64,000 nucleotides of DNA from contig CAWEQH010000010.1 of NCBI GenBank assembly GCA_963811165.1, positions 1-64,000 of the forward strand, read 5' to 3'. The position numbers and the translations under genes were made by a program. Below are positions 18,360 through 37,277 of this stretch, in pieces (the first letter of the stretch is position 1; every line of letters starts with the position of its first letter). The stretch is from an uncultured Nitrospiraceae bacterium (GTDB lineage: Bacteria > Nitrospirota > Thermodesulfovibrionia > Thermodesulfovibrionales > UBA6898). The notes under the pieces are model-generated. The model ran no database searches and was not told the origin of the DNA. It was given only the letters and a program-made list of their open reading frames with translations.

Positions 18360-21107
18360 ATGATGAACGGTATCGCACAAATCAAGACGGGTCAGATGAA
18401 CTGGCACCGGGTAACTATTGAAGAGGTTATGGAAGCGCTCCGCACAGGTCCTGACGGTCTGGATTTTGCCGATGTGCAGAAGAGGATCAGCGAGTTCGGA
18501 CCGAATGAATTGGTTGAAATGAAAAAAAGGTCGCCCTTCCGCATTTTTCTATCCCAGTTAACGGATTTTATGATCATTGTCCTTGTCTTGGCAGCCGTCG
18601 TATCGGGAATAATCGGCGACCGGGGGGACGCCGTTGCGATCCTGGCCATCGTCGTTCTTAACGCGGTCGTTGGATTTATACAGGAGTATAGGGCGGAAAA
18701 AGCGATTGCGGCGTTGAAAGAAATGGCGGCCCCTACCGCGACAGTCAGAAGAGAAGGAAAGACCATGGAGGTCCCCGCCTCTGCGCTTGTGCCGGGCGAC
18801 GTGGCCGTCCTTGAGCCGGGGAGGATCGTCCCTGCCGATATGAGGATCGCAGAATCTTTTCAGCTCAGAGTAGTCGAGGCGGTGTTGACCGGTGAGGCGG
18901 CCCCTGTGGGAAAAAGTGCGTCGGTCATGACGGAAGAGGCCGCCGCTCTTGGCGATCTGGAAAATATGGCGTTCAAAGGAACCACTGTCTCCTACGGCAG
19001 GGGGAAAGGGATCGTAGTTGCCACGGGCATGAGCACTGAGTTCGGAAAGATCGCCGGTATGCTTGAGAAGGAAAAAGAGGTAAGGACGCCTCTTCAGAAA
19101 AGACTTGCCCGTTTCGGCAGGAGACTTGCGCTTTTCATCCTTGCCGCATGTCTCGTCATCTTTTATATAGGGATATTCAGGGGAGGGCCGTTCCTTCTGA
19201 TGTTTCTTACGGCTGTATCGCTGGCCGTGGCCGCAATCCCCGAGGCGCTTCCGGCGGTGGTGACAATCGCCCTTGCGATAGGGGCAAAAAATATGATGGC
19301 GCGAAAAGCGCTTATCAGGAAACTTCCTGCGGTCGAAACCCTGGGCTCGGTGACCTATATATGCTCGGACAAGACCGGCACCCTGACTGAAAACAGGATG
19401 AGTGTTGAAAAAATGTATACTGCAGGGGAGATAATAGATACCGCCGCCCTGAAAAAGACAATGCGTGTGCGATCGTCCCGGGCCGAAGATAACCGAGGCA
19501 TACCTGAGGGTCTGCAGGCAGTGAATGCCTTAATGACCGCCTTTTCCCTCAATAATAACGCAACGGCGGACGACCCCGACCACCCTTCAGGAGATCCCAC
19601 CGAAGTCGCCCTATTTAATGTCGCGCGTGAAAACGGATTCGATACAAATAGTCTGGAAAAGATGTTGGAAAGGGTGGGTGAGATCCCTTTTGACCCCGAG
19701 AGGCGCTGTATGACGACCTTGCACAAAATTATCATGCCTTCGCAGATACCATTTTTGACAGGAGGGAGTGCCGGAGCGTCCGATAATGGTTTTATCTCTT
19801 TTACAAAGGGGGCGGTGGAGGTGCTCATAGATAAAGCCGCATCCATTTTAGGGAAAGAAGGGGTCAGACCCCTCGACCGTGGGGAGTTGATCACGATAAA
19901 CGACCGGATGGCTTCCGAGGGGCTAAGGGTTTTATGTATCGGGATGAGAAGATGGGGAACCCCTCCGGATATCTTGTCTGCCGATACAGTCGAAAACGGA
20001 CTAACCATATTGGGTCTTGCCGGCATGGTGGACCCTCCAAGGGAAGGGGCTAGGGGGGCAGTGGCCCTCTGTAAAGAGGCGGGGATACAGGTGGTGATGA
20101 TTACCGGGGACCACCCGGCCACGGCCATGTCCATAGCGAAAAGACTCGGCATATCGGATAACGGGAAAGCTGAAATTATTACCGGCAGGGAGTTGAACAA
20201 TATGTCCGATATTGAGTTTAGAGAACGTGTCGGGCGAATACGCGTCTATGCGCGGATGGCTCCGGAGCAGAAGTTGAAGATCGTAAAGGCCCTGCAAGAC
20301 AGAGGAGAGTTGGTCGCAATGACCGGAGACGGGATAAACGATGCGCCGACCCTCAAGAGGGCTGACATAGGCGTTGCGATGGGCGTTGCCGGCACCGACG
20401 TGGCAAAAGAGGCGGCAGATATGGTACTCCTCGACGATAACTTCGCATCGATCGTAAACGCAGTGGCAGAGGGAAGGAAGATATACGACAATATCAGGAA
20501 GTTCATCAAATATCTCCTTACGACGAACTCCGGAGAGGTATTGACTCTTTTCCTTGCACCCGTGATCGGACTGCCGGTGCCGCTTCTGCCGATCCAGATA
20601 CTGTGGGTAAACCTCATTACCGACGGCCTTCCCGCCCTTGCCCTGTCGGTAGAGCCTGCAGAGGGCGATGTGATGAAGAGGCCGCCCAGAGATCCCGGGG
20701 AAGGCATATTTTCTCATGGCCTGGGCCGCCACGCCCTTTGGGTCGGCCTGTTGATGGCAGGGACGGTACTTGCCGTGCAGTCATGGTCGCTCAGGTTTTG
20801 CGGGGCCCATTGGCAGACGATGGTCTTTACCCTGCTTTGTGTGACGCAGCTGGGCCATGTCCTTGCGATAAGGTCTGAAACGCGGTCGCTGTTTGAGATG
20901 GGTCTGTTTTCGAACAAACCTCTTCTTGGCGCTGTAGTCTGCGGCCTCGTCCTTCAACTGACGGTAGTATATTCCTCATCCCTGAATGCGATGTTTAAGA
21001 CCATGCCTCTGACCGCTGGGGAACTGGCGCTGACGATGGCCCTTTCATTCGTCGTATTTTTTTCAGTAGAAATCGAAAAACTCGTAAAGAGGAGGCAAAA
21101 AAGCTAA
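18360..21107 (+). CDS. Cation-translocating P-type ATPase (Ca2+/P2A-like)
   Basis: [37 protein letters not shown]; start codon uncertain. Confidence 0.93.
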
Positions 21108-21151
21108 TAGGTACGTTGAAGTGTCATGCATATGGTAGAATATAGATGAAA

Positions 21152-21496
21152 GGGGGCGATTGGGCTCGACGGGGGTTATGAGGCTCACGTGGCGTGTCGT
21201 GGCTCCATCACCACGTAAAAAGGTGGAAACAAACACAAACGCCAACAACGAACTGGCACTCGCAGCTTAATTAAGCTGCACGCTACTCAGGGATCGCCTG
21301 TGTACCGGAGATAGCGTCGATCAGCGGGCTGGCTTCAGGGTCTTCTCCTGCCCCTGAGGTAAGATTAAGGGAGATGGAGTTTCGGGCAGCCTGACTGTCG
21401 GCGTCCCGAACCTTGACGATGAAAAGACAGCCTACACACGTAGAAGCTTGAGAGTAGTGCCTTCGGACGCGGGTTCGATTCCCGCCGCCTCCACCA
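21152..21496 (+). ncRNA. ssrA: tmRNA
   Basis: GGGGGCG.../...CGCCTCCACCA acceptor stem, GGTTCGATTCC T-loop, tag ANNELALAA* at 21241-21270. Confidence 0.96.
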
Positions 21497-21511
21497 GATT
21501 ATTGTTCCCGT

Positions 21512-21539
21512 AGGGGATTGTGAAACAGTCCCCTTTTTC
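21512..21539 (+). terminator. Rho-independent terminator after ssrA
   Basis: AGGGGATTG-TGAAA-CAGTCCCCT followed by a T run. Confidence 0.75.
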
Positions 21540-21704
21540 TCCTTCTGCATAGGCTGGAAACAAACGTATTGTACTCCAAAAAGTGGGATACCCATCTGCC
21601 GTAATTTACCCTGATTTGCCTTGACTTATGCGTAATTTCTGTGATAGATAATGAGCACTCCGAATGGAAAAAATAGGCGTAGGGGCATGAAAAAAGGAGG
21701 GCAT

Positions 21705-21977
21705 ATGGCAAAGAAGATAGCCGTTTTGGTGAGAGACAGGCAGGCAGAGGCATTAAGAATGGCTGTGGGGCTGACTCTCGCGGACGACGAAGTAAGCGTC
21801 TTTGTTATGGACAAAAAGGTCGATATGTCTGATGAGGCTGTTGCGCTTAATGTCGAAATCCTGGGAGACCTTGATGTGAAGATATACTCAAACAACCCCG
21901 AAAATAAGTTCGAGCAAATGAGTACCGAAGAGATCGCCCTCAATCTTGTGAAATTCGATACGGTAATTCCGTACTGA
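21705..21977 (+). CDS. DsrE/DsrF-like small protein
   Basis: KKIAVLVR..AEALRMAVGL pattern; AGGAGG RBS. Confidence 0.6.
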   Translation: MAKKIAVLVRDRQAEALRMAVGLTLADDEVSVFVMDKKVDMSDEAVALNVEILGDLDVKIYSNNPENKFEQMSTEEIALNLVKFDTVIPY

Positions 21978-22002
21978 ATTCCTCAGACAAAGGTGCGCGG
22001 GG

Positions 22003-22794
22003 CTAGCAGGAATAGTGCTCTTTTCTTCTGTCTTCAAAAAGGTCGTTGAAGGAATTAAGTTTTTTGCTGCGGGCGGAGGCGATATCCACTTCAGCAGCGC
22101 CGAATTCTTCAGAGTCTCTTTCCGCCCTGTAGAGGACCTCTCCATTGGGCGACACTATCTCGCTTGTCCCGATGAATTCAAGTCTCTCCTTCCCGCCCCT
22201 CTGTTCACTTCCGGTCCGGTTTGCAGTTACCGCATAGACCCTGTTTTCGAGGCACCTCGTCGGCATGGCGTCCGGACAGTGGGGGAGGACAAGATTTGCG
22301 GGATGGGCTATAATGTCGGCACCTTTCAGCGCGAGGGTCCTTGCAGACTCGGGGAAAAACCAGTCAAAACATATCATGACGCCAATAGTCCCGACAGGGG
22401 TTTCCCACACCTTAAACCCCGTGTCTCCAGGGGAAAACCAGAGTTTTTCCTCGAAGAAAAGGTGCGTCTTTCTGTAGACCCCGATGAATCCGTCGGGGCC
22501 GGTCAGCACGGCCGAATTAAAAAAAGAGCCGCCGGCCCGCTCAGCGATCCCCGCGACTATGTGGAGGTTCTTTTCCTTTGACAACTCAATCAGAACCTTT
22601 GTCGTAGACCCTGATGGAATTTCCTCCGAAAGGTCTCCGACCTCGGCCCTTGAGGTGAACTGATAGCCCGTATTGAACAGTTCCGGAAGGACGACCAGAT
22701 CGGCCTTTTTTCCTGAGAGCACCTGCGAAACCCTGGTGAGGTTCCCCTTTACATCCCCGAAGACCGGGTCGAACTGTAGAAATCCTGCTATCAT
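22003..22794 (-). CDS. Nitrilase/carbon-nitrogen hydrolase
   Basis: VLPEL, YRKTHL, ICFDW catalytic E-K-C. Confidence 0.92.
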   Translation of the reverse strand: MIAGFLQFDPVFGDVKGNLTRVSQVLSGKKADLVVLPELFNTGYQFTSRAEVGDLSEEIPSGSTTKVLIELSKEKNLHIVAGIAERAGGSFFNSAVLTGPDGFIGVYRKTHLFFEEKLWFSPGDTGFKVWETPVGTIGVMICFDWFFPESARTLALKGADIIAHPANLVLPHCPDAMPTRCLENRVYAVTANRTGSEQRGGKERLEFIGTSEIVSPNGEVLYRAERDSEEFGAAEVDIASARSKKLNSFNDLFEDRRKEHYSC

Positions 22795-23046: not shown

Positions 23047-24597
23047 ATGTTACTAAAGAAAAAGATAGCCATTAGTTTCTTTATCAGCGGATTTATCATA
23101 GCCATACTCGTGGCTTTTGAGTTCGTCAGCTTCATCCAGCTGAGGAAGGCGATAACCTTCCTGGAAATTACGGATACTATCAGGTCCAAGTCCCTCCAGG
23201 TGAGGAGACACGAGAAGAATTTTTTTCTTTACGGCTCGACAAGAGGGGACGCGGAAGCGAAGGAGGTCCACAGATATCTCGGCGAACTTAACGGTATCCT
23301 GCTGAGCGATGCGAGCGCGGGAATGAAAGGGAGACTGTCTTCTTTTCGGGGGCTTACTGCGGAATACGAGCGGCGGTTCACTACCATAGAGGAGTCGCTG
23401 GAAACGCTGTCTTCAGAACTGAAAGGCCTGAAAACAACTTCCATGAAATACTCTCAGTTCTACCCGCTCATAGAATGGACCTTCCTCGATAGGCCGCGGC
23501 AGGCGGCCTATTTTCTCACAAAGGTGTTTCTTCTCCCCAGGGACCACAGGCTCGTTTCGGGACTTCGGGAGCTGGACTCCGAGATCGTCGCACTCAGGAA
23601 AACCGGTGAAGACATCCTGGGGGCCTCCAAAGACCTCGACAAGCTCGAAAGGGACGACGCCGAGAGGGTGATCCATACCTCGCAGATTACGATGCTGGTC
23701 CTCTTCAGCCTCTTCATCGTAGTAGGACTTGGCACGCTTTTTTATATTACAAGCAATGTTGTAAAGAAGTTGGGTCTCCTGACCGCCGCAGTCGAAAAGG
23801 CCGGAAAGGGAAATTTCGCCCCGATGTCTCTTTCATCGGGGATCGACAATGACGAGGTGGGAACGCTCATCAAGACCTTCAATCATATGGAAGAAGAGCT
23901 TGCTCAGAGGGAAAAAGAGCTTATACAGTCCAAGAAACTCGCTGCGATAGGGACCCTCGCCTCGGGCGTGGCCCACGAACTCAATAACCCCCTTAACAAT
24001 ATCTATACGACGTCACAGAGACTCATAAAGAAGGCGGGCGATGATGTTCCTTCTGTGATAAAAAAGGCCCTTAACGACATATTCGGCGAGACGATGAGGG
24101 TTAAAAAGATCGTCAGCGATCTTCTCGATTTTGCTAGGGGGAGGGAACCGCATCTGCGCTCTGTTGAAGCCGGGGCGCTTATCGAAGGCGTATTCCGGCA
24201 TCTCGGGAATTCGATAGACACCGGGAGGATTAAGTTCGATCTGTCAATGCATCCCCGTGAAGTCGTGTTCGAGGCAGACCAGGAGCAGCTTGAGCAGGTC
24301 TTTATCAATCTCTTCATGAATGCCATCGAGGCTATGTCTGGGGTAGGAGAGATTTCTGTCAGGGTCGAAGAAGAAAAGGACGTAGTGAGGATGCGGGTAT
24401 CTGATTCCGGGAAAGGTATATCGTCTGAAACCATCGAAAAGCTTTTCGAGCCTTTTTTTACGACGAAAGACAAGGGGACAGGGCTGGGCCTTGCGATAGT
24501 ATTCAATATTGTCCAGAAACATAACGGTCATATCGAGGTGGAAAGCGGAGAGGGAAGGGGCACTTCGTTTATAATAACGTTGCCGAAGAAGACGTGA
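23047..24597 (+). CDS. HAMP sensor histidine kinase
   Basis: 2 [29 protein letters not shown]. Confidence 0.93.
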
Positions 24598-24625
24598 AGA
24601 CAGTGAATAGTGAAAAGTGAAAGGG
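24592..24625 (+). repeat. Degenerate heptamer tandem repeat (AGTGAAN)
   Basis: gtgaagacagtgaatagtgaaaagtgaaagg. Confidence 0.5.
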
Positions 24626-24647
24626 TAAACGAAATACAAAACGGTGA

Positions 24648-25985
24648 ATGACTTTGGCGTTTAAGATACTTGTTGCAGAAGACGAAGAAATAACCCTGAA
24701 CAATATCCTCGATGCCCTCAGGGACGAGGGGTACGAGGTCTCCGGAACAAAGGACGGTCAAGATGCCCTCATGAAGATGGGGGCGGGGAGCTTTGACGTC
24801 CTGATCACCGATATAAAGATGCCGGGGATCGGTGGCCTTGAGCTCCTCTCGAAGGTGAAGGAGCAGTTCCCGGAAACCGAGGCGATTATCATTACCGGGT
24901 TCGGGAGTATCGGCTCGGCTGTGGAGGCCATGAGGAGCGGCGCCTATGATTACATCACAAAGCCGTTTGACCTCGATGAGCTTGTACTTAAGCTGAAGAA
25001 GATACAGGGACAGAAGGTTCTTATGAAGGAAAACATAGCCCTCAAGACTTTTTATGGAATGAACAAAGAAGTTCCGATCATCGCCAGGAGCGAGAGTATG
25101 AAGAGGGTCTTAAATGACATAGAGGGGATGAAGGACTCGGACTGTAATGTATTGCTCACGGGCGAAAGCGGGGTCGGGAAGAACTTGATCGCAAAGATAA
25201 TCCATTCGACAAGCAAAAGACAACATATGCCCTTTCTTTCTATTAACTGCGCCACCCTGACAGAGGACCTTCTGGCAAGCGAACTCTTCGGACATGAAAA
25301 AGGCGCGTTTACGGGGGCGATCAAGACAAAGCAGGGGCTCATAGAGATCGCAGACACGGGTACGCTGTTTCTGGATGAGATCGCCGAGATGACGCCTAAT
25401 CTGCAGGCCAAATTGTTGAAGGTGGTTGAAGACGGTGAATTCTACAGGGTGGGAGAGACAAAACTTATCAGGGTGGACGTGAGGTTTATTGCCGCGACCA
25501 ACCAGGACGTGAAACGTCTTATCTCGGACGGCAAATTCAGGGAAGATCTCTACTACAGGCTGAACGTGATGGAGATATTCCTCCCGCCTCTGAGGGACAG
25601 GATGGAGGACATCAAACCCCTGAGCATTTATTTTCTCCAGAAACATCTGCCTAAGGCCAATAAGAAGATTACCGGTTTTACGAAGGAAGCAATGGACATC
25701 TTCATGAACTACAGTTTTCCGGGAAATGTGCGGGAGCTTGAGAACCTTATTGAGCGGGCGATTATCCTTGAGAAGGGGCCCCTCATTACCCCGGGGAGTC
25801 TCCCCCACAGTATCCAGGTCCTTCATATCGATACGCTTGATTCAGGAAGGGTCCTTACCGTTGAGGAAATCGTGAAGGAGTACGCTGAAAAAGTAGTCAA
25901 GATGCTCGGGGGCAACAGGACAAAGGCTGCCGAGATGCTCGGTATTTCGAGGACAAGCCTCTGGAAAATATTGAAGGAAGAATAG
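24648..25985 (+). CDS. sigma54-dependent response regulator (NtrC family)
   Basis: REC, GESGVGK, GAFTGA, FREDLYYRL, Fis-type HTH. Confidence 0.95.
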   Translation: MTLAFKILVAEDEEITLNNILDALRDEGYEVSGTKDGQDALMKMGAGSFDVLITDIKMPGIGGLELLSKVKEQFPETEAIIITGFGSIGSAVEAMRSGAYDYITKPFDLDELVLKLKKIQGQKVLMKENIALKTFYGMNKEVPIIARSESMKRVLNDIEGMKDSDCNVLLTGESGVGKNLIAKIIHSTSKRQHMPFLSINCATLTEDLLASELFGHEKGAFTGAIKTKQGLIEIADTGTLFLDEIAEMTPNLQAKLLKVVEDGEFYRVGETKLIRVDVRFIAATNQDVKRLISDGKFREDLYYRLNVMEIFLPPLRDRMEDIKPLSIYFLQKHLPKANKKITGFTKEAMDIFMNYSFPGNVRELENLIERAIILEKGPLITPGSLPHSIQVLHIDTLDSGRVLTVEEIVKEYAEKVVKMLGGNRTKAAEMLGISRTSLWKILKEE

Positions 25986-25994
25986 CGTTTGTAG

Positions 25995-26127
25995 CGTTTA
26001 TATTCTGAACGGTACACAAAAACTGCCTTTAGTCCCCATTTTTTGATAGTAAATAATTTATTTTCAATAAGTTGCGAGATTTATAAACTCATATTCCCCT
26101 CTAAATATACTGTTCATAATATTAACG
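25995..26127. promoter_or_regulatory. Candidate enhancer sites and IHF-like site
   Basis: CGTTTA-N5-TGAACG (25995) and TGTTCA-N5-TTAACG (26111); TTTCAATAAGTTG (26062). Confidence 0.5.
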
Positions 26128-26174
26128 CATATTTAGCCTTTCAAATATTACCTTTTAAAATCAACTACTTTTAA

Positions 26175-26191
26175 TAGGCATCTTTTGTGCT
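26175..26191 (+). promoter_or_regulatory. sigma54 -24/-12 promoter
   Basis: TAGGCATCTTTTGTGCT, GG-N10-GC, downstream of an NtrC gene. Confidence 0.7.
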
Positions 26192-26225
26192 TTACTCTAA
26201 GGCAAAAGCCTTAAAGGAGGTAAAG

Positions 26226-26717
26226 ATGAGGAAACAGCTTTTATTTGTGACTTACGAGAACGAAGATCTCGACGAAGGTCTTAACTACGCCATAGATCTT
26301 GCCACTACTATGGGTAAGGACATCGCAATCCTGATTGCAACGAACAAAAAGACGCTTAAGGATAAATTCGATGACCTAATGTCGGCGGTCACATTTGCCG
26401 AGGCAAACGACCATGAAACCGCTAGAGAAATCCTCTCCGCAGGTCAGAAAGAGGCGGCCCTCGAAGAAAAAGTCGAGCGTCTTGCCGAGAAATGCCAGAG
26501 GTCCGGGGTGAATGTGAATGTCCATTCGGTGACTGTCGAGCTTTTTTCGGCAATCAAGGATTTTCTCAGGGAAAAGACAGGCATAGACATGGTCCTTCTG
26601 AGCCCGAGCGTTACGGACAACGGGAATGTTTCCGCACGCGAGCTGAACAAACTTGTAAGGACGGCATCGAGGCCTGTAGTGACCATGGCCAGACAAACTC
26701 TGGCGCCCGTTCATTAA
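26226..26717 (+). CDS. USP-like hypothetical protein
   Basis: AAGGAGG RBS before ATG 26226; degenerate USP-fold pattern ending SRPVVTM. Confidence 0.65.
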   Translation: MRKQLLFVTYENEDLDEGLNYAIDLATTMGKDIAILIATNKKTLKDKFDDLMSAVTFAEANDHETAREILSAGQKEAALEEKVERLAEKCQRSGVNVNVHSVTVELFSAIKDFLREKTGIDMVLLSPSVTDNGNVSARELNKLVRTASRPVVTMARQTLAPVH

Positions 26718-26754: not shown

Positions 26755-27673
26755 ATGTATCTTTATTTACCGGTGGCTCTTACCAGTATAAATGTACTCA
26801 TACCAGTGGGGCTGGGCCTCGCTGTAGGCCTGCTTTCAGGTCTCTTTGGTGTGGGCGGGGGATTTCTCATGACGCCGCTTCTGATAATGTTCGGCATACC
26901 TGCGACTGTTGCCGCTGCTACTGATTCCAACCAGATCGTGGCGGCCTCGACCTCAGGGACCTATGCCCATTGGAGGGTCGGCAATGTAGATTTCAAGATG
27001 GGGCTGTACCTTCTTGCAGGCGGTTTTATCGGCGGTCTTGTCGGCGTGCAGGGCATAAAGCTCCTCAACGCTATGGGGAACGCGGATTTCGTTATTAAGA
27101 TGACCTACGTGCTTATGCTGGGCAGCGTGGGCGCATATATGTTCGTCGAAAGCCTTCAGAGCATGAAGAAGAAAAAAACGGAAGTGAGCAAGCCCGTTAA
27201 AGAGTCAGGGGTTGCGAAATTTCTCAAGTCCCTTCCGCTTCAGACGCATTTCGAAAAGTCAGGGGTCACCCATTCTGCCCTGCTTCCGATTATTTTCGGA
27301 GGCTTTGTGGGTATTTTGGCGGCCGTCATGGGCGTAGGCGGAGGGTTCCTGATGGTGCCTGTAATGGTCTATATCCTGAGGATGCCGATGCATGTAGTTG
27401 TCGGTACGAGCCTTTTTCAGATCCTCTTTAACTGCATAGAAGTGACTTTCCTGCAGGCCTATACGCAACCACAGCGTGGATTTTATCCTCGCCGTACTCC
27501 TGCTGATCGGTTCGACGTTCGGCGCCCAGGTCGGTGCGGTTTTCGGAAGAAAACTTAAGGGTGATCAGCTGAAGATTATCCTTGCGGTAATCGTGCTTGC
27601 GGTAACCGTCAAAATTGTTTTTGATCTTACTATGAGTCCGTCATTACTTTTGTCACAAGGAGGGGGGCACTAA
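26755..27673 (+). CDS. TauE/SafE (TSUP) family exporter with a +1 frameshift near 27466
   Basis: Two GVGGGFL motifs, VVGTSLFQ; removing one base restores ..YTNHSVDFILA.. to the stop at 27673. Confidence 0.88.
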
Positions 27674-27674
27674 A

Positions 27675-28487
27675 ATGAAATTCACGATTCAGGATTCAGG
27701 ATTCAGGATTTTTAATTACCTGGGGCTTGCTGTTGCGGCAGTGATATGCTCTATTTTCTTGGCTGGCGGGACCGCCTCGGCCGTGTTGACGGCCAAGGCG
27801 AACCATGACCATATTACCGTGGACTTCTTTTATCACGGCAGTTCGGTCAGCGTCAGAGGGGTATCGGACCCCGGGACCGACCTGGTGATAAAAATAAGCT
27901 CTCCGGAGGGTCACGAGACGTTGAGGCAGAAGGGTAAGGTTGCAGGGCTTCTTTGGATGAATGTGGGGAAACTGACATTCGAGCATGTGCCTTCCCTCTA
28001 CTTTCTCCATAGCACGAAAAACCTGACGGAGATCCTTAACAACGAAGAGCTGAACAAGTATGTGCTGGGGTATCCGGCCCTCGAAGCGCATACGGAAGTG
28101 TCCCCTGTATCGGGCGATGCTGAGAAAAACAGATGGTTCGGCGAATTCCTGAAGATGAAAGAGTCTTCGAAGGTCTACTCGACTTCGAGCGGGAAGATCT
28201 CCACGACTACCACCAAGGACGGCCTGCAGGAGTATTACGTACTGATGGATTGGCCTTACCAGGCAAAACCGGGCGAGTATACGGTGACGGTGTATGCGGT
28301 CAAGGACAATAGGGTGGTAGAACAGGCCGAGTCCAAAGTTTCTGTCGAACAGGTCGGCATTGTGAAATCTTTCGCGAGGATGGCGAAAGAGAGCGCTGCC
28401 ACATACGGAACGATCTCAATCTTAGCGGCCCTCGGCGCGGGTTTCGGTGTAGGCCTGGTATTTAGGAAGGGCGGGGGGGCCCATTAA
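27675..28487 (+). CDS. TIGR02186-like putative membrane protein, usual TSUP partner
   Basis: Signal peptide, KGKVAGLLWMN, PGEYTV, C-terminal TM. Confidence 0.75.
   Translation: MKFTIQDSGFRIFNYLGLAVAAVICSIFLAGGTASAVLTAKANHDHITVDFFYHGSSVSVRGVSDPGTDLVIKISSPEGHETLRQKGKVAGLLWMNVGKLTFEHVPSLYFLHSTKNLTEILNNEELNKYVLGYPALEAHTEVSPVSGDAEKNRWFGEFLKMKESSKVYSTSSGKISTTTTKDGLQEYYVLMDWPYQAKPGEYTVTVYAVKDNRVVEQAESKVSVEQVGIVKSFARMAKESAATYGTISILAALGAGFGVGLVFRKGGGAH
27680..27710 (+). repeat. Heptamer tandem repeat ATTCAGG inside the 5' coding region
   Basis: attcacg attcagg attcagg attcagg att. Confidence 0.7.
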
Positions 28488-28490
28488 TTA

Positions 28491-29348
28491 ATGTATAAGA
28501 CCTTATTAGTCGGTTTTGACGATTCGCAGGCCAGCAAGGCGGCGATGATCGAGGCCTCAAACTGGGTAAAGCGGCACGGGGGCAACGTCGTGCTGGTGCA
28601 TGCCGTTTACTTCGATTCCGAGGAGTTCGGGATTGCGCCGACACAGCTTGACCAGCGGTTGAAGCACGGTGAAAAGGTCTGCCTCGAAACCAAGAAGATG
28701 ATCGCGGATGAATTCAACATAGAAGTGAAGTCCCTGCTTTGCGAGGGCGAGCCGCCCGAGGTTATTCTGAGCATGGCCAGAGAGAAGAAAGCGGACCTTA
28801 TCGTGCTCGGCACTTACGGCAGAAAAGGACTGAACAGACTCCTTATGGGCAGTGTGACATCTCAGGTGATAGTGAATTCACCGGTTGATGTGCTGGTCAT
28901 AAAGAAAAAATGCAGTGAGTGTACGGGAACGTACAGGTCCATACTCGTTTCCTATGACGGCTCCGACTTCAGTAAGAATGCCCTGGCACGGGCATGCAAA
29001 TTGTCACAGGACGATGGCGCTGAGGTCTCTGTCCTTTACGTTATCCCCCGCTATGAGGAGATGATAGGATTTCTCAGGACCGAATCGATAAAGAAAAGTC
29101 TCATTCAGGAGGCCCGGAAGATCCTTGAAGGGGCGAAAGAACTCGCTTCCAAAAACGGGGTGACGGTCAAGACTGAAATACGGGAGGGCCATGCGGCCGA
29201 CAGAATATTAGAGACGGCTGCAGACCTGAAAAATGATTTAATAATTATAGGAAGTTACGGGTGGAGAGGCGTGAACAAGGCCATTATGGGAAGCACGACT
29301 GAGAGAGTGCTTATCAACGCCCCTTGCCCTGTGCTTGCGGTGAGGTGA
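28491..29348 (+). CDS. Tandem universal stress protein
   Basis: Two USP domains with DLIVLGTYG..LMGSVT and IIGSYG..MGSTT. Confidence 0.93.
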   Translation: MYKTLLVGFDDSQASKAAMIEASNWVKRHGGNVVLVHAVYFDSEEFGIAPTQLDQRLKHGEKVCLETKKMIADEFNIEVKSLLCEGEPPEVILSMAREKKADLIVLGTYGRKGLNRLLMGSVTSQVIVNSPVDVLVIKKKCSECTGTYRSILVSYDGSDFSKNALARACKLSQDDGAEVSVLYVIPRYEEMIGFLRTESIKKSLIQEARKILEGAKELASKNGVTVKTEIREGHAADRILETAADLKNDLIIIGSYGWRGVNKAIMGSTTERVLINAPCPVLAVR

Positions 29349-29353
29349 ATACG

Positions 29354-29773
29354 ATGAAAGGCTATAGAAAAGTACTTATTGCAGTAAACGGCTCCCGCGA
29401 AGTGCTTCGGCAGGGGCTGAAGCTCGCGGACGATGAGAAATGCTGGGTGACCGTGGTGAAGGTTATTCCTTCTTACGAAGGTGACCTCAATCTTGTCGGG
29501 GTGAAAAATATCGGAGACGTACTAAACAGCGGGGCCGATAAGGCTATCGCCGGAATTAAGGAAACCGCGGCCGCCGAAAGGGCGCTGATAAAGACGAGGC
29601 TTGAAGAGGGAGACGTATCAGAGAAGATCGTTCAGGTAGCCGAGGAAGAGGATTGCGATATCATTATCATGGGGGCCAAGAAGCGGAGCTGGCTGAGGAA
29701 GATCTTCGGAGATAATGTCGTAGAAAGGGTCATCCAAAGTGCGCCCTGTCCTGTTCTGGTCGTCGGCGCGTAG
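29354..29773 (+). CDS. Universal stress protein
   Basis: YRKVLIAVNGS, DIIIMGA, APCPVLVV; GAGG RBS. Confidence 0.9.
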   Translation: MKGYRKVLIAVNGSREVLRQGLKLADDEKCWVTVVKVIPSYEGDLNLVGVKNIGDVLNSGADKAIAGIKETAAAERALIKTRLEEGDVSEKIVQVAEEEDCDIIIMGAKKRSWLRKIFGDNVVERVIQSAPCPVLVVGA

Positions 29774-29805: not shown

Positions 29806-31527
29806 ATGTGTGTGGGAAAGTTTGAGAAACTCGGCGGAAGTGGGCTTCCGACGGGCAAGTTTGAAAAGCCGGTCAGAAGTGGGCTTCCGACGGGCAAGTT
29901 TGTAAGACTGGTCAATAGAGAGCTTCTGACGGGCCGACAGTTACATGATTATATGGACGAGGCCGCGGCTTCAGGAAAATACCCCGAAGACGTCCTTTTG
30001 GAAAAAGGCGTGCCGAAACACGAGCTCCTCTTCTGTCTTGCCGAACATTACGGATATCCATTCGTCGAGTATGACGAGGGGCTTATGGCGCCTTATTTGG
30101 TGACGATGCGCCTTGATCTTGAGAAACAAAAAAAGGCCCTCTGGTATCCTCTTTCGGTCGGGGAAGGAAAGGCAGAGGTAGTAGCTTATGCGCCTGAAGA
30201 CCCGGCGGTTGCAGAAGATATAAAGCAGACGCTGAATGTGACCTCTATCAGTTTCCGTGTCGCCCTCCCTGGTGACCTGGTCAGAATTATCGAAAACAAT
30301 TTCGATGTGAACCCCGGCTTCGGGATCTGCGGAGGAAGGACCCCTCTGGCGCATGTAAGGACTTCATTTGCATATCGTCGCTCGACGTATGCGTATTACA
30401 GGACGCTGCTTGCCAAGGGAAGAACCGGCCTCGCTTTCATCAGGACCGGGATATCATTTATTACCATCTCACTGTTGTTTCTCAGGGTCTTCGGGACCGG
30501 CTGGTATGCGTTTTTGGATATACCGCTTCTGATAGGCGGCATTGTGATGATCTATGACGGCTTGAAGTGGTATCTGCCCTGCCGGTCTGTTGCGAGTAAG
30601 CCTATAGAGTACGAATGCACCGAGCCCACTTGGGGGACAACGGTGCTTGAGTTGCGGCCCTTCACGGCCAGTCCTTTGATTGAACGTGGCAGCGCGGTTC
30701 CGGGCTCAGGGGGACTGAGGGAAGACTGGGACATCCTTTCTCCGGTAATGAGGAGGCGTTTTCTTGCGAGCGACAGGACAGACCTCGCAGAGGAGAGGAC
30801 TTCACTGGCCGGACACCGGACCGTGATATCGAAGGCCAGGACGGGTCTGGCCTTTACGAGGACGGGCGTTGCGTTCAGCGGACTCGGGATCGGATTGATC
30901 AGGTCTTTTCATTCCGGCCCATGGACTGTCTTCGACGTTTCGCTAATCACGATCGGCGCTCTGATGATACTGGAAGGCTTTCACTGGTATTTCGGCAGCC
31001 GGCGCACCTGGGTGGAAGGAGTGAAATGCGCGATCACTCGGAACAAGAGGGAGAGCATTTGGGATTTTGTGATGCCTAACGGACTTAAACGCAGCGGACC
31101 TAAGAAAGATAATGCCTGCCCGCCTGTTCATGCAAACGACCTGCCGGGCATCTGGGCCACCACCGGCTTGGCGCTCGAAAGGACCGTCCTGGCCGAAAGG
31201 CGCAACGTGATGTCGAGGCTCCGCACAGTCATGGCACACTCGCGTACCGGCATGGCGTTTATACGGACGGGCATCGGCATCTGCGCGGTCGGCGCCGGTC
31301 TCATGTTTTATTTTGGGACTGCCTCGGTCTTATGGACGGTCTTTAACGCGTTTCTGATACTTACCGGCGTGCTGCTGATACTTGACGGCTTTTATTGGGC
31401 CGTCCCCGCCGAAAAAATGAGGGTCCAGTACCCGTACTGTTACGGCGATATGGATATTACCGTCCCGGACTACGGCGTACCCGCACGTTCCTGGAGGAAG
31501 GCGGTCTTCAGCCATGATGGAGACTGA
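29806..31527 (+). CDS. GspE-N/MshEN-like domain fused to three DUF202-like membrane repeats
   Basis: N-terminal LAEHYGYPFV..W.P.....VVAYAP pattern of secretion ATPase N-domains, no ATPase; three RT.LA..RT..RTGLAF.RTG + 2 TM units. Confidence 0.75.
   Translation: MCVGKFEKLGGSGLPTGKFEKPVRSGLPTGKFVRLVNRELLTGRQLHDYMDEAAASGKYPEDVLLEKGVPKHELLFCLAEHYGYPFVEYDEGLMAPYLVTMRLDLEKQKKALWYPLSVGEGKAEVVAYAPEDPAVAEDIKQTLNVTSISFRVALPGDLVRIIENNFDVNPGFGICGGRTPLAHVRTSFAYRRSTYAYYRTLLAKGRTGLAFIRTGISFITISLLFLRVFGTGWYAFLDIPLLIGGIVMIYDGLKWYLPCRSVASKPIEYECTEPTWGTTVLELRPFTASPLIERGSAVPGSGGLREDWDILSPVMRRRFLASDRTDLAEERTSLAGHRTVISKARTGLAFTRTGVAFSGLGIGLIRSFHSGPWTVFDVSLITIGALMILEGFHWYFGSRRTWVEGVKCAITRNKRESIWDFVMPNGLKRSGPKKDNACPPVHANDLPGIWATTGLALERTVLAERRNVMSRLRTVMAHSRTGMAFIRTGIGICAVGAGLMFYFGTASVLWTVFNAFLILTGVLLILDGFYWAVPAEKMRVQYPYCYGDMDITVPDYGVPARSWRKAVFSHDGD
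29815..29934 (+). repeat. 39-bp (13 aa) tandem repeat, 3 copies
   Basis: GAAGTGGGCTTCCGACGGGCAAGTTTG at 29837 and 29876; protein GKFEKLGGSGLPT/GKFEKPVRSGLPT/GKFVRLVNRELLT. Confidence 0.8.
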
Positions 31528-32728
31528 CCTTCAGGAAGTCTCGGAATTCTCGCTGCTGACCGAGTTGGAGGTCCTGGCAACAGAGCAACTCGGGGAGGCG
31601 ACGGCCCGTTCCCGTTCAAGAGGGATCGATCTCGAAAAGGTCCTGCTTGCGGAATACGGTGTGCCGAAACACGTCCTCCTGAGGGCGCTTTCGGAATACT
31701 ACCGGTGCCCTTCGATCGAATATGACGAACGCCTGCCAATACCGCCTGAGGTCCTGACCGGTTTGGATGCGGATGTCCTTTCGGCAGGGCTTTGGATGCC
31801 CGTTATTAAGGACATCAGCGGCAGAGTCGTGATCGCTGCGCGGTATCCTCACAGTCCGGAGGTTTTGGAGGAAGTAAAGAAATACGTCGGGACCGAAGAT
31901 ATAGAATTCAGGGTTGCGCTTGCCGAAGACATCAGATGGTATATCCAGGACTTTCTTCACGAGAAACCGGGTCGTCTCATAGGTACGGAGAGGACGGGAC
32001 TGGCATACTGGCGCAACACAATGGCCCAGTGGAGGACAAGACTGGCCTGTTACAGGACCGACCTTGCCAAGGCAAGGACAGGGCTTGCCTTCCAACGGTG
32101 GGGCCTCGGCACCCTTGCACTGGCCAATACGCTTATTAATTCGAAATATGCGGGAGATTCTCTTCCTCTTTATTTCTTCCTTGCTTCTGCCGGTGCGGCT
32201 TTTTTCTTTTCGGGTCTGCCAAGTTATATGCGGATCAGGAGGTCAAGGCTGACGCCGCCCGGACACCATACCCTCGTCGAAGTGACTGCGGCGACGCTTC
32301 TTTTCCTCGAGGATTATCACTACCTGGAGGACACGGGGACACGGCCTGCGACGAAGGGCACCATGCTGGCAAGGATGGGAGATATGCTTTCGGACCACTG
32401 CACAATCTTTTACCCGTCTCCTTCAAGCAGGGTGCGTACGCAGCTGGCTCGGGAACGGAACGTTCTTGCGGCGCAAAGGACGATTGCCGCATGTTATAGG
32501 ACGATTTACTCCCGTGCGAGGACCGGTCTTGCCTTCATGCGCACGGGGTTCTCTTTTATGAGTATCGGCATAGGTCTCTTAAGCTATTTCGGCATCGGCA
32601 TAATGACGTCCTTTGACTTTTGTCTGGTCTTTGCCGGTCTCCTTATGCTCGTCGACGGCATGCTTTGGTATATGCCGGTAAGAAAGGAACAGGCCGAAAT
32701 ACCAAGAAGTCTCGCTTACCCGGAATGA
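31514..32728 (+). CDS. GspE-N/MshEN-like domain fused to two DUF202-like membrane repeats
   Basis: Paralog of the previous gene (GVPKH.LL..L.E.Y..P..EYDE shared); two RT-heptad + 2 TM units; overlaps upstream stop. Confidence 0.75.
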   Translation: MMETDLQEVSEFSLLTELEVLATEQLGEATARSRSRGIDLEKVLLAEYGVPKHVLLRALSEYYRCPSIEYDERLPIPPEVLTGLDADVLSAGLWMPVIKDISGRVVIAARYPHSPEVLEEVKKYVGTEDIEFRVALAEDIRWYIQDFLHEKPGRLIGTERTGLAYWRNTMAQWRTRLACYRTDLAKARTGLAFQRWGLGTLALANTLINSKYAGDSLPLYFFLASAGAAFFFSGLPSYMRIRRSRLTPPGHHTLVEVTAATLLFLEDYHYLEDTGTRPATKGTMLARMGDMLSDHCTIFYPSPSSRVRTQLARERNVLAAQRTIAACYRTIYSRARTGLAFMRTGFSFMSIGIGLLSYFGIGIMTSFDFCLVFAGLLMLVDGMLWYMPVRKEQAEIPRSLAYPE

Positions 32729-32805: not shown

Positions 32806-34230
32806 ATGAAGATAGAAAACAAGATCATACTCTCAAATGCCTTCAACATCGGGCTCATCCTATTGATCGGATTTTTTGCGATGCAGAACTTGAACCTTAT
32901 ACTCACAAAGCTCCGTTTTGTCGAAATAGCCGACGACCTGAACGCCTCTTTCCTTGAGATGCGCCTTTCCGAAAAGAACTATTTCCTCTATAATGACGAG
33001 TCTGCGCTGGTCGACATAAGGGAGAAGATCGATTCGACGGTGCAGTCGATAGACCTTGCCGGCGGAGACATAAGCCGGGCCATAGGACAGGAAAATCTCG
33101 CCCTGCTGAAGTCCCATCTCAGGGAGTATTCGGAGACGGTCGAGGAGGTCCAAAAGAGTGCGCGCAAGGCCGCCAGCGTCGAGGCGACCTTCCGAACGAG
33201 AGGAAAAAACCTGAGGGAATTTTCGAACACAATCACGAGGCTTGAAAGGAAGGGCGTCAACAATATTATCGCCAGGGCGAAGAACGTGCTCTTTTATTCT
33301 TTCTGGGCTGTGCTGGCAACGGCGATAATCGTGAGCCATTTCATTTCGCAGCGGATATTGCATTCCCTGAGGGAGATTCAGAGGCTTGCGAAATCAATAT
33401 CTCAGGGCAACTTCAATAAGATAGAGGGCTTCTCGTCCGCGGATGAGTTCGGCTCCGTAATAACGGCGGTTAATTCCATGTCGGAGGAGCTGAGAAACCG
33501 GGAGGAGGAGCTTATCCAGTCGAAGAAACTTGCTTCCCTCGGCATTCTGACGGCCGGGGTGGCGCACGAGCTCACGAACCCCCTCAACAATATCTCCATG
33601 ATCGCACAGAACTATCAGGAGTTTTACGACGTATTGAGCGAAGGGAACCGGCTGGATCTCATGAATAAGATCGAGGGAGAGACCCGGAGGATAGAGGAGA
33701 TCGTGAGGAACCTCCTCGATTTTTCGAGGCCTAAGGAGGCCAAGCTCGAGGAGAAAGATGTAAATGCTGCCGTCGTGAAGGCTCTTGAACTTATGCAAAA
33801 CACCCTTGATATTTCCAACATCGAAGTCGGATCGTCATTGGCTGAGGACCTGCCCCGTGTGCAGATGGACGACCACCAGGTCCAGCAGGTGCTGGTGAAC
33901 CTTATCGTCAACGCGGTCCACGCCATGGAGCCTGGGGGGAAGCTGACCGTGGCCACGCGTAAAGGCGAGGGGGGAGATACGGTGAAGATTGAGGTGAGCG
34001 ACAACGGCAAAGGAATACCGGCCGAATATATTCCCCACATCTTCGATCCTTTCTTCAGCACGAAGGGGGTCGGAGGGACAGGGCTCGGTCTTTCGGTCAG
34101 TTACGGGATAATTAAAAACCATAAAGGCACTATCAAGGTCGAAAGCACGGTAGGGGAGGGGACCACGTTCATTATCGAGCTTCCGGTTTATAATAAAAGC
34201 AGGGGACCCGGGGTATTGCGCAATGCGTGA
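32806..34230 (+). CDS. HAMP sensor histidine kinase, paralog of 23047-24597
   Basis: VAHELTNPL, FDPFFSTK, GTGLGL; LEMRLSEKNYFLY periplasmic motif. Confidence 0.93.
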   Translation: MKIENKIILSNAFNIGLILLIGFFAMQNLNLILTKLRFVEIADDLNASFLEMRLSEKNYFLYNDESALVDIREKIDSTVQSIDLAGGDISRAIGQENLALLKSHLREYSETVEEVQKSARKAASVEATFRTRGKNLREFSNTITRLERKGVNNIIARAKNVLFYSFWAVLATAIIVSHFISQRILHSLREIQRLAKSISQGNFNKIEGFSSADEFGSVITAVNSMSEELRNREEELIQSKKLASLGILTAGVAHELTNPLNNISMIAQNYQEFYDVLSEGNRLDLMNKIEGETRRIEEIVRNLLDFSRPKEAKLEEKDVNAAVVKALELMQNTLDISNIEVGSSLAEDLPRVQMDDHQVQQVLVNLIVNAVHAMEPGGKLTVATRKGEGGDTVKIEVSDNGKGIPAEYIPHIFDPFFSTKGVGGTGLGLSVSYGIIKNHKGTIKVESTVGEGTTFIIELPVYNKSRGPGVLRNA

Positions 34231-34344: not shown

Positions 34345-34716
34345 ATGGGTGCGAACAGGATCATGGTCATCGACGACGAGAAGATCGTGGGTGACATGTC
34401 AAAGCTGTCTTTAGAACAGGAGGGCTACACGGTAGAGACCTTCCTGAGCGCCGAACCCGCTCTAAAGAGGCTGCAGGAAGAAGAGTTCGACGTCGTTGTC
34501 ACGGACCTTAAGATGAGGGGCATAGACGGCATGGAGGTATTGAGGACCGTTAAAAAACTTTATCCCAAAACAAAGGTAATTATGATCACGGCGTTTGCCA
34601 ACCTCGACGCGGCGATTGAGGCGTTGAGAGGGGATGTTCACGACTTTTTCCCCAAGCCCGTCAGGATCAAAGAGTTGAAGGCGTCCATACAGAGGGCATT
34701 GAGCCAGCAGGAATGA
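34345..34716 (+). CDS. Single-domain response regulator
   Basis: IMVIDDE, TDLKM, MITAF, PKP. Confidence 0.92.
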   Translation: MGANRIMVIDDEKIVGDMSKLSLEQEGYTVETFLSAEPALKRLQEEEFDVVVTDLKMRGIDGMEVLRTVKKLYPKTKVIMITAFANLDAAIEALRGDVHDFFPKPVRIKELKASIQRALSQQE

Positions 34717-37277
34717 AGAATGTCCTGGACAGAATAAGGTCTTTATTTGGTCCTTCCAAAGAGGACGGCGTCGGATCCATGCCGATAAAGACCGTTTTCA
34801 GGAGTTTCAAAGAGGTCCTTGAAGGCAACAGCCGGGCACTTGAAATCATTGCGGATATGGGTGAAAAGCTCGGGGGCGACTATCTCTTCGACATTAATTA
34901 CATTAAAAGCGCCTATTCCGAACTGGCTGGAACGGTCTCTAATTCTCTGCAGAACTTTGACGCCCTTACTGTAAACAGATACCTGAAGTTGCACGACGTG
35001 TTTAGTCGCGTCGACTCTCAGATAAAGAGGCTCATATTCGAAGTTACCCCTACGCCCGGCGTGATGGTACTTTCGTTCAAAGACATAACCTGGAATATGT
35101 TCCGGGATGTGGGCGGGAAGAACGCGGCCCTCGCGGAGATGACGAATTATCTGAAGCTCAACGTTCCGGAGGGCTTTGCCATAACGACCAGCGCATTTGA
35201 CGAGTTTGTAAGACATAACGGGTTGGAAGAAAAGATCCGGTCTCTCCGCGAGAGTTCCCCCATAGAAGACCGTCTTTTAGAACAGATGAGGGATCTCATG
35301 ACGAACGGTGCCATCCCTGCCGACCTCGATACCGCCATCGATAGCGCCGTCGAAAGGATCAGGGAGACCTTCGGGAGAGATTGTTTCCTCGCTGTCCGCT
35401 CAAGCGCCGAGGAGGAAGACGGAGAGCACTCCTTTGCAGGGCAGTTTGAGACCGTGCTGAACGTCCCTCTGGATGAGAGGGCGCTTAAGGACGCCTATAA
35501 GAAGGTCCTCGCCAGTCTTTTTTTGCCGGGCTCCGTTTCATATCAGACGGCCCTGGGGTATCGGATCGGGGACATAAAGATGGCGGTAGGTTGCCTCCTC
35601 ATGGTGGATGCAGTAAAGAGCGGAGTTATCTATACTATTGCGCCCAACGGGGACAGGGATATCATGGTAATAAATTCGACATGGGGACTTGGGCTGCTGG
35701 TAGTCGAAGGGCAGAGCGACACCGACATGTACATGGTGAAAAAAGATATCGAGCCCGAGGTGGTGGGGAGGAAGAGCGGAGGGAAGGAATATATGATCGT
35801 CGGCCGTAAAGGCGGCGGTATCGAAAAGATCAAAACACCGGATGAGATGCAAAGCGGGTCTTCGCTGACCTACCTTGAGATAGGAGAGCTTGCCAGACAG
35901 GCCGTCTCTATAGAAAAACACTTCAGAAAGCCGCAGGATATCGAGTGGGCCATCGACAAGGCCGGAAGACTTTTTATTTTGCAGGCGCGTCCGCTGCACG
36001 GTATCGAGGCAGAAGCGGGAGACTCTGCGCGCAATGAAAAGACGGCGGAGACCGGAGAGGTCCTTATGAAGGACAAAGGGGTTGTCGTGCAGAAGGGCGC
36101 GGGAGGAGGAAGGGTCTTTATCCTGAGGCACCCCGGTGAGATCGATGGGTTCCCGAAGGGCTCGGTGCTGGTTTCGAAGTACGACTCTTCAAATTTTGTG
36201 CGCATTATGCCCTACGTCTCGGCGATCATCACCGACATCGGTGCGCCTACAAGCCATATGGCGTCTCTTTGCAGGGAGTTCAGGGTCCCGACGGTTGTCA
36301 ACGCCGGGGATGCCACCAGGGTTTTCGAACACGGGCAGGAGGTCACGGTCGCGGTCGATGACAAGGGCGCTACGGTGTACGAAGGCGTCAGAAAGGAGTT
36401 GCTCAGGGACGGCGGGAGGAATTCCCTCAAGATGGACGAACTCTACGAATACCGAAAGCGGAGGTATGTGCTGAGACACATTTCGATGCTTAACCTTGTC
36501 GACCCCACGCAGGACAACTTCTCGCCCGAAGGATGCAGGACCCTGCATGATATTATCAGGTTCATGCATGAAAAAGCCGTGACCGAACTGGTCGTAAATG
36601 CAGGGCGCGGCAACGAGATAGCGAAAAAACACGCGACCGTGAAATTGGACCTTCCCGTCCCTGCAGGCATTGTCGCGATAGATATAGGCGGCGGCCTGGA
36701 CGTAGGCCAGGATGCCGGGAAGGCCTCATTTGAGCAGATCCTCTCCGTGCCGCTCAGGGCGGTCGCCCGGGGGATGATGCACCCCGGGGTCTGGCATGCC
36801 GACGCGGTCTCGCTTAAGATGGGGGATTTCTTTTCGAGCATGATGAGGATGCCTGACCTTGCGGCAGACAGGAGCGAGTACATCGGCTATAACGTGGCGG
36901 TCGTCTCCGGCGAATATCTCAATTTGAGCATCAGGTTCGGTTACCACTTTACCGTGCTTGACTGTTACTGCAGCGAGAATGCGAGAAACAATCATGTCTA
37001 TTTCCGGTTTATCGGCGGCGCGACTGATATGATCAAAAGATCGAGGAGGGTGGAGGTCATCTCTTTTGTTCTGAAAGAGTTTGGTTTTACGGTGACGACC
37101 AGGGGTGACCTCCTCATCGGGAGGCTGGCCAATATAGACAGGGACGAGATGGAGGGTGTCCTTGATCAACTCGGCAGGCTGATGGCGTTTACGAGACAGC
37201 TCGACGCGGTACTCAATGATGAGGCCTCTGTGGAGCGATTTAGCAGAAATTTCATCGAAGGCAGATATACGATCTGA
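34713..37277 (+). CDS. PEP-utilising enzyme-like protein (PPDK_N ATP-grasp + phospho-His swivel, no pyruvate-binding barrel)
   Basis: VGGKN, AVRSSA..ED, SFAGQF, PQDIEW, ILQARP, TSHMASLCREF. Confidence 0.85.
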   Translation: MKNVLDRIRSLFGPSKEDGVGSMPIKTVFRSFKEVLEGNSRALEIIADMGEKLGGDYLFDINYIKSAYSELAGTVSNSLQNFDALTVNRYLKLHDVFSRVDSQIKRLIFEVTPTPGVMVLSFKDITWNMFRDVGGKNAALAEMTNYLKLNVPEGFAITTSAFDEFVRHNGLEEKIRSLRESSPIEDRLLEQMRDLMTNGAIPADLDTAIDSAVERIRETFGRDCFLAVRSSAEEEDGEHSFAGQFETVLNVPLDERALKDAYKKVLASLFLPGSVSYQTALGYRIGDIKMAVGCLLMVDAVKSGVIYTIAPNGDRDIMVINSTWGLGLLVVEGQSDTDMYMVKKDIEPEVVGRKSGGKEYMIVGRKGGGIEKIKTPDEMQSGSSLTYLEIGELARQAVSIEKHFRKPQDIEWAIDKAGRLFILQARPLHGIEAEAGDSARNEKTAETGEVLMKDKGVVVQKGAGGGRVFILRHPGEIDGFPKGSVLVSKYDSSNFVRIMPYVSAIITDIGAPTSHMASLCREFRVPTVVNAGDATRVFEHGQEVTVAVDDKGATVYEGVRKELLRDGGRNSLKMDELYEYRKRRYVLRHISMLNLVDPTQDNFSPEGCRTLHDIIRFMHEKAVTELVVNAGRGNEIAKKHATVKLDLPVPAGIVAIDIGGGLDVGQDAGKASFEQILSVPLRAVARGMMHPGVWHADAVSLKMGDFFSSMMRMPDLAADRSEYIGYNVAVVSGEYLNLSIRFGYHFTVLDCYCSENARNNHVYFRFIGGATDMIKRSRRVEVISFVLKEFGFTVTTRGDLLIGRLANIDRDEMEGVLDQLGRLMAFTRQLDAVLNDEASVERFSRNFIEGRYTI

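Follow-up and report, generated by a model that had tools for sequence, protein, structure and literature searches.

Paired MshEN-fold proteins with three plus two arginine-heptad DUF202 hairpins: a possible two-component-controlled anion conduit

The window analyzed here is a stretch of 64,000 nucleotides of contig CAWEQH010000010.1 (assembly GCA_963811165.1), part of a 3.66 Mb genome that is 95% complete. On its forward strand, two genes overlap by 14 bases: gene A (29806-31527, 573 residues) and gene B (31514-32728, 404 residues). Each encodes an MshEN-fold domain followed by DUF202 membrane hairpins that begin with arginine heptads, three in A and two in B. An original prediction, made from the letters of the window, had described 29806-32728 as an overlapping pair of paralogs, which is confirmed by the open reading frames (ORFs) and by an A/B alignment (35% identity over 386 residues). 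The closest kin of A and B bear Nitrospirota or Thermodesulfovibrionales names, and no further copies of either gene were found in the source genome. A 39-base tandem repeat at the start of A (29814-29934, forward strand; 3.1 copies, 81% matches) encodes approximately its first 26 residues, a low-confidence extension that is missing from most homologs; these are mostly about 547 residues long.

The MshEN-fold domain of A (29887-30303, residues 28-166) precedes the units A1 (30337-30579, residues 178-258), A2 (30754-30996, residues 317-397) and A3 (31159-31407, residues 452-534), and that of B (31532-31957, residues 7-148) precedes B1 (31991-32233, residues 160-240) and B2 (32435-32677, residues 308-388), all on the forward strand. 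Arginine recurs at every seventh residue, in runs of 6, 6 and 5 starting at R178, R317 and R459 of A and of 6 and 6 starting at R160 and R308 of B; a six-arginine run appeared in 0/5000 shuffled sequences of A and 1/5000 of B. The shared pattern is R-T-x-hydrophobic-small-x-x, with arginine at position 1 in 29/30 heptads and alanine, serine or glycine at position 5 in 30/30. In A3, an invariant threonine stands at the place of the first heptad arginine. The best 120 homologs compared per protein have identities of 58-92%; in them, 27 of the 29 heptad arginines are kept in 120/120 sequences and the other two in 119/120. The three and two copies of a unit with five to six arginine heptads, of which the original prediction quoted those of A2, are thus real. 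Hydropathy and AlphaFold models agree on two membrane helices per unit. The models of A (predicted local distance difference test score, pLDDT, 79.8; helices 178-229/235-263, 313-367/374-414 and 447-503/508-541) and B (pLDDT 74.5; helices 163-209/217-243 and 308-359/365-395) show in each unit a first helix that runs unbroken for about 50 residues and a second helix after it.

The Pfam family DUF202 (PF02656) matches whole A in three stretches with 49.7 bits (cut-off 23.4), and A1, A2 and A3 also exceed the cut-off when cut out singly (30.4, 28.6 and 26.9 bits). Whole B is matched in two stretches with 19.8 bits, and B1 and B2 reach 15.2 and 20.9 bits singly, all under the cut-off; the B units align with those of A. 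The proposed DUF202 assignment is supported, clearly for A and more tentatively for B. In a family test of B, PF02656 was present in 74-83% of the proteins that make up the three nearest Atlas clusters; the Atlas search returned only clusters of the A/B family itself. The database label of the family is 'uncharacterized membrane protein YidH', and we know of no settled function for bacterial DUF202 proteins. In the work available on this protein, deletion of yidH lowered NADPH and raised iron (PMC4054840), and Escherichia coli YidH passed a screen for D-alanine export but failed the transport assay (PMC10299036). Stand-alone bacterial DUF202/YidH proteins resemble A and B in the Arg-Thr heptads that lead into a membrane hairpin, but differ in having one unit, three arginine heptads and no N-domain. 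Such an ordinary protein is also encoded in the source genome (L110; 76 bits). With its three heptads as reference, the arginine series of A and B is doubled on the cytoplasmic side, in line with the expectation of a coiled coil longer than that of typical DUF202 proteins. Our literature search, which covered few subscription papers, returned no description of an architecture combining an MshEN fold with several DUF202 units. The ordinary DUF202 gene (L110:1393-1821, reverse strand, 142 residues) lies near genes that we read from their translations as rnpA-, yidD- and yidC-like, and a similar gene is found in genome G154 (L114:3488-3895), a few kb past the dikinase of an operon discussed below. 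A COMP match on A3 (E 0.015) was too weak and was disregarded.

The N-domains are matched by Pfam MshEN (PF05157) at 5e-8 in A and 9e-11 in B, above the cut-off. In fold comparisons, they align with MshE (5htl) at Z 13.6 and a root-mean-square deviation of 3.3 over 136 residues for A, and at Z 14.2 and 3.6 over 139 residues for B; other matches are the N-domains of PilF, XpsE and PilB. The likeness extends over the whole two-subdomain fold of these MshEN/GSPII domains (PMC5013675). Neither A nor B gave a Pfam match to an ATPase family or a C-terminal P-loop ATPase domain, so that the earlier description, an N-domain like that of type II secretion and type IV pilus ATPases but no ATPase, stands. 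MshEN domains bind cyclic di-GMP (c-di-GMP) through a 24-residue RLG...LxxQ motif (PMC5013675). Even in relaxed form, this motif was found in 0/120 homologs of A and 0/120 of B, and in our own motif alignment the essential glycine of motif II is replaced by glutamate in 119/120 A homologs (E61) and 118/120 B homologs (E41). The N-domains have therefore kept the MshEN fold and lost the c-di-GMP motif; A and B are not c-di-GMP receptors of the MshEN type, and the gating by N-domains that had been proposed for the pair is not supported as gating through c-di-GMP. Unlike the proteins described in PMC5013675, they lack the motif and the ATPase and are fused to membrane hairpins, a fusion that does not appear in the available text and supplements of that source.

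We surveyed the pairing of A and B in two ways. From 229 matches, the 78 best-scoring loci were kept, a sample that is consequently biased to close kin: 71 show a plain A(3)-B(2) arrangement, 4 have the order A-A-B (in one of them, the second A is spread over two frames), another has a B read in two frames, and a contig end truncates the remaining 2. Among 401 genomes sampled evenly from the phylum of the window, 61 carry A and 59 carry B, and B follows A within 175 bases in 59/59; in the two A-only genomes, the locus stops at a contig edge. A second phylum, that of a Desulfobulbaceae genome, has the family in 6/401 genomes, each time as A(3)-B(2)-kinase and once distributed over two contigs. 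Among 150 representatives listed from 1.84 billion clusters, we counted 9 full A-types with three hairpins and 7 full B-types with two, and none with four or more; a fused A+B chain was absent from 7995 candidates of 708-2020 residues, which is weak evidence. In kin that are not independent of each other, the 3+2 arrangement persists to identities as low as about 40% (L098). The pairing thus follows a fixed 3+2 partition, with exactly five units per A and B, and homologs occur in the paired form that the original prediction had named as a check. P0306, an N-domain with one unit, was considered as another partition of the five units and rejected: this singleton has lost B1 in frame, and all genes seen whole in the 7 metagenome loci that it retrieved have 3 or 2 units. 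Two A paralogs before one B (L045, L046, L053, L058; genomes G322 and G388) may represent alternative A subunits. At one further locus (L081, G245:C26), the whole operon is split into many frames, all genes alike.

To our knowledge, the sole solved complex of the DUF202 unit is the pore of the eukaryotic vacuolar transporter chaperone (VTC), and a 1:1 heterodimer of A and B had been proposed to form a similar five-helix pore. We predicted the complex of A (residues 27-573) with B at 1:1, with own unpaired alignments and three controls. The pair scored 0.74, compared with 0.00 for the best control; the mark applied is reached by 116/157 solved and 2/215 mismatched pairs, and is only a rough guide with own alignments. 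The A+B runs show a contact agreement of at least 67% and a partner pLDDT of at least 64. The predicted contacts join A1 to B2 and A3 to B1, and A2 meets no residue of B, all of which fits the ring order A1-A2-A3-B1-B2. Contacts are made by heptad positions 1, 2, 5 and 6 in A1 and B1 and by positions 7, 1, 4 and 5 in A3 and B2, so that the positions common to both seams are 1, the arginine, and 5, the small residue. Two seams with two common positions are typical of helical barrels. Two of the five interfaces are thus seen in the predicted contacts, both fitting a VTC-like ring with its basic residues inward. Closure of this ring would involve A2 and the B1-B2 seam, i.e. three intrachain interfaces, and would create a pore with five full rings of five arginines and one of four, over approximately 50 Å. 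We consider a five-helix heterodimer of A and B probable. None of the three contrary results named beforehand, no DUF202 match, no bundle and arbitrary repeat counts, was obtained.

The comparison to VTC extends to details of the pore. VTC subunits are classed as DUF202 (PMC7283521), yeast VTC contains Vtc1, Vtc3 and Vtc4 at 3:1:1 (PMC9911596, 10.1101/2023.01.27.525886), and its pore is lined by the five first helices (PMC9911596), with K24, R31 and M42 of Vtc1 and their equivalents 698/705/716 and 622/629/640 in Vtc3/Vtc4 as pore residues (10.1101/2023.01.27.525886). These residues share the heptad spacing 1, 1, 5 with the axis positions of A and B. We take R31 to be the arginine of the DUF202 'ERT'; if so, the Met/Leu gate of VTC corresponds to serine, alanine or glycine in A and B. 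Both systems have a DUF202 membrane unit and five such units, and the predicted ring of A/B would share with VTC heptad-spaced basic rings with pore residues at positions 1 and 5; A/B resembles the VTC pore in its predicted build. In contrast, VTC assembles from five chains instead of two, has three membrane helices per unit instead of two, and two basic rings where A and B have six arginine heptads; its polymerase and SPX domains are lacking in A and B, which have MshEN-fold domains instead and occur mostly in hosts without ppk1. No match to an SPX or a TTM/VTC polymerase domain was found in either protein. A unit profile searched against the solved VTC chains gave one chance match (E 0.26), phmmer with A found PilF N-domains only and no VTC chain, and no VTC chain was among the matches listed by Foldseek and VIA-align for each monomer, where the N-domain and generic helix bundles dominate; the latter result is no evidence that the folds differ. 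A and B are, in short, members of the MshEN fold and, in B with scores below the Pfam cut-off, of DUF202, and neither a VTC, nor a c-di-GMP receptor, nor an ATPase.

The pair is followed, on the same strand, by genes for a HAMP histidine kinase (32806-34230), a single-domain receiver (34345-34716) and a dikinase resembling phosphoenolpyruvate (PEP) synthase (34713-37277), which has ATP-grasp and His-swivel domains with His515. Upstream, likewise on the forward strand, lie a TauE/TSUP permease (26755-27673), its TIGR02186-like membrane partner (27675-28487) and, immediately before A, two universal stress protein genes (28491-29773). The permease occupies two frames, with an ORF that ends at 27558 and a homologous tail in the other frame; since the dsrA gene of this genome is also spread over several frames, assembly indels are a likelier cause than a pseudogene. 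Counting only loci with sufficient flank, the kinase lies downstream of the pair in 53/61, the receiver in 49/57 and the PEP-synthase-like gene, a frequent but not constant neighbor, in 46/55, and TauE lies upstream in 32/52. Orthologs of the kinase, searched with its N-terminal 190 residues (the group falls below E 1e-40, the next match at 1e-24), are present in 58/401 genomes, namely 55/61 carriers of the pair and 3/340 non-carriers. The pair is therefore co-inherited with its downstream kinase, a link that, like the one to the receiver, goes beyond the original prediction.

In the three kinase-only genomes (G029, G001, G154), the slot of A/B immediately upstream of the kinase is taken by a second TauE permease; apart from this gene, the G154 operon matches that of the window gene by gene. 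The kinases of these genomes nest, with weak support, within the B-preceded kinases. TauE/SafE (TSUP, PF01925) is unrelated to A and B in sequence and fold family, and neither gives a PF01925 match; the likeness consists in the same position before kinase, receiver and dikinase, which makes A/B and the permease candidates for a similar role in the operon. In the second phylum, a kinase match is found in 9/251 genomes, 4 of them carriers. In the other 5, the kinase is preceded by a single-hairpin gene (2 genomes), by a cytidylate-kinase-like gene (1) or by no co-oriented gene (1), or is a distant one (1). The two single-hairpin DUF202 genes (L132:2394-3347 and L133:9257-10069, both on the reverse strand) hold 29 and 22 perfect Arg-Thr heptads and have a related kinase and receiver as their immediate downstream neighbors; their products are predicted to form a very long coiled-coil tube. 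Single-hairpin relatives have no N-domain, and 2 of the 17 scanned (P0304, P0393) carry a C-terminal receiver. The best match of these fused receivers in the source genome is the lone receiver at 34345 (47% and 41%; rank 1 of 67 and 27 receiver-like matches). A further single-hairpin protein with a long arginine series (P0242; L097:8396-9121, forward strand, 241 residues) is encoded after a cytidylate-kinase-like gene in G402, a genome that also has two A/B loci; a gene like this cytidylate-kinase-like one precedes the kinase in L131.

We favor, with slightly less than even confidence, a conduit for a small anion under two-component control, in which A and B form the five-helix barrel with axial arginines and a sulfur oxyanion is the likeliest cargo. 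The kinase would sense a periplasmic signal and phosphorylate the lone receiver, which, as we infer, would dock on the cytoplasmic side of A+B, at the N-domains or the C-terminal tails. Once docked, the receiver would either open or shut the arginine-lined passage for the anion through the parallel barrel, formed at 1:1 with its arginines towards the axis. Judged separately, net anion transport by A+B appears somewhat favored, control by the kinase and receiver is about evenly balanced, and a sulfur oxyanion as cargo is rather doubtful. In Dissulfuribacter, thiosulfate disproportionation is accompanied by a rise of a TauE, of its partner and of the PEP synthase next to them (PMC13490349). dsrA is present in the source genome and in 61/66 carriers; as this gene is general in these lineages and was counted in carriers only, the number does not single out sulfur. 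Polyphosphate, the cargo implied by the earlier VTC analogy, is unlikely from gene content, since ppk1, ppk2 and the VTC polymerase domain (PF09359) were not found in the source genome, where controls were detected, and a full ppk1 occurs in only 4/66 carriers. Of that earlier interpretation, the family, the 3+2 count and a predicted five-helix ring are supported; polyphosphate as cargo is not, nor is a gating by the N-domains through c-di-GMP. The available portions of the papers on DVU0146-0150 (PMC4265775, PMC4641369) do not mention the A/B pair. Dde_3775, first considered as a TSUP gene, is in fact ferredoxin I and was dropped, and matches in the available text of PMC10434189 concern DUF2023 and are irrelevant.

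Several observations weigh against this conduit. The slot TauE genes of G029, G001 and G154 form one clade (support 1.0), so that the swap counts as a single event; the two single-hairpin slot loci are also one clade and hence one event. Single-hairpin relatives whose 22-29 heptads would extend to about 300 Å are longer than a channel requires. In G039 and G184, the pair and the kinase lie at separate places, G374 has no kinase ortholog, and the kinase-receiver loci L130 and L131 have neither the pair nor a substitute in front. B1 has an atypically polar, weakly hydrophobic first membrane helix, in which no Kyte-Doolittle window exceeds 1.5. In the complex model, B2 and A1 are aligned in register, but A3 and B1 are slipped by one heptad. 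The singletons P0246, P0257 and P0306 have fewer units, through internal losses. The generality of dsrA belongs here as well, and the complex itself may have passed owing to a resemblance to solved five-helix bundles or to the paralogy of A and B; its score therefore supports binding but does not show it. Beside these points, the locus of G039 has further features: its pair (L117:6373-12728) comes, in our own reading, after one gene that starts like MshEN and another that is Tad-like, and is followed by a receiver alone, and its kinase is located elsewhere, in a TauE cluster (L118).

The main rival, ahead of a polymer channel and an organic-anion permease, is a barrel that binds anions in its arginine core and moves little or nothing, acting on the kinase as a membrane co-sensor or scaffold, i.e. 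as its input. Transporters that serve as co-sensors are known, as in DctA-DcuS and PstSCAB-PhoR. Such a role would suit the tighter linkage of the pair to kinase and receiver than to TauE, the co-inheritance with the kinase, the receivers fused to single-hairpin relatives and the very long and variable arginine series of these relatives, and it is equally compatible with TauE in the A/B slot. It sits less well with the pairs that are found apart from or without a kinase and with the axis-facing positions, which remain small across the membrane part, and the sole characterized complex of the DUF202 unit is a conduit (PMC9911596, 10.1101/2023.01.27.525886). On balance, we regard a non-conducting co-sensor as fairly unlikely.

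Two other alternatives keep conduction and change the cargo, and both appear improbable to us. The barrel could thread a long polyanion as VTC does, which may be polyphosphate or a phosphorylated polymer that the PEP-synthase-like enzyme makes; the DUF202 unit and the five-fold count are common to VTC, a stack of arginine rings would suit a polymer, and the dikinase, its phospho-histidine motif kept, follows in 46/55 loci. The missing polyphosphate genes speak against this, as does the absence of the dikinase behind kinase and receiver at several second-phylum loci; moreover, such dikinases also stand beside TauE in Dissulfuribacter (PMC13490349). The same dikinase linkage could instead mean that the barrel is a permease whose substrate, an organic or phosphorylated anion such as pyruvate, PEP, a carboxylate or a sulfonate, is trapped or made by the enzyme. 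TSUP permeases of sulfate reducers without a known substrate (PMC4641369) leave room for this idea, and the slot substitution by TauE leaves the identity of the anion unspecified; the dikinase is, however, less constant than kinase and receiver, and E. coli YidH failed the D-alanine transport assay (PMC10299036). Finally, the pair could serve a type II secretion or type IV pilus apparatus as a membrane accessory that docks through its MshEN-fold domains. These match the N-domains of PilF, MshE, XpsE and PilB, and a gene before A in G039 seems, by our reading of its start, to be of the MshEN type. Yet A and B have no ATPase domain, no pilus or secretion gene is found in the commonest neighbor clusters of the 78 loci, matched to window genes, and the single-hairpin relatives lack the N-domain entirely, which makes this last alternative highly improbable.

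The conserved pair is of interest for the DUF202 family at large. A natural 3+2 concatemer fixes both stoichiometry and subunit order, so that the helices can be altered one at a time by mutation, and it brings a candidate regulator in the form of the kinase and receiver. The movement of sulfate, sulfite and thiosulfate in sulfate reducers and disproportionators is partly open in the account available (PMC13490349), and the slot swap with TauE bears directly on it. An arginine-cored five-helix barrel would, if true, be an unusual natural coiled coil. More broadly, although we consider it unlikely, the pair could be the concatenated form of an unrecognized class of bacterial anion channels, in which five R-T-x-L-A-x-x helices stack arginine rings, are opened by a phosphorylated receiver and offer a sulfur-oxyanion route that replaces TauE. 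The ring count of this conjectural class would range from 6 in A/B to as many as 29 in single-hairpin relatives (about 30 nm). Such a class would provide bacterial DUF202 proteins with a function and would make the VTC pore a small-anion module of prokaryotic origin that was coupled to a polymerase later.

A few further features of the neighborhood may be recorded. In the dikinase of the window, the N-terminal 130 and C-terminal 300 residues match no assigned domain, and two or three dikinase-type genes surround the pair in L063, L065, L068, L073, L076 and L101. A second kinase gene, similar at its start, stands at the head of the operon (23047-26717) together with a sigma-54 regulator and a gene like those for universal stress proteins. 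Before the cluster (18324-22794) lie genes for a P-type cation ATPase, a small protein of 108 residues with no confident Pfam match and a carbon-nitrogen hydrolase.

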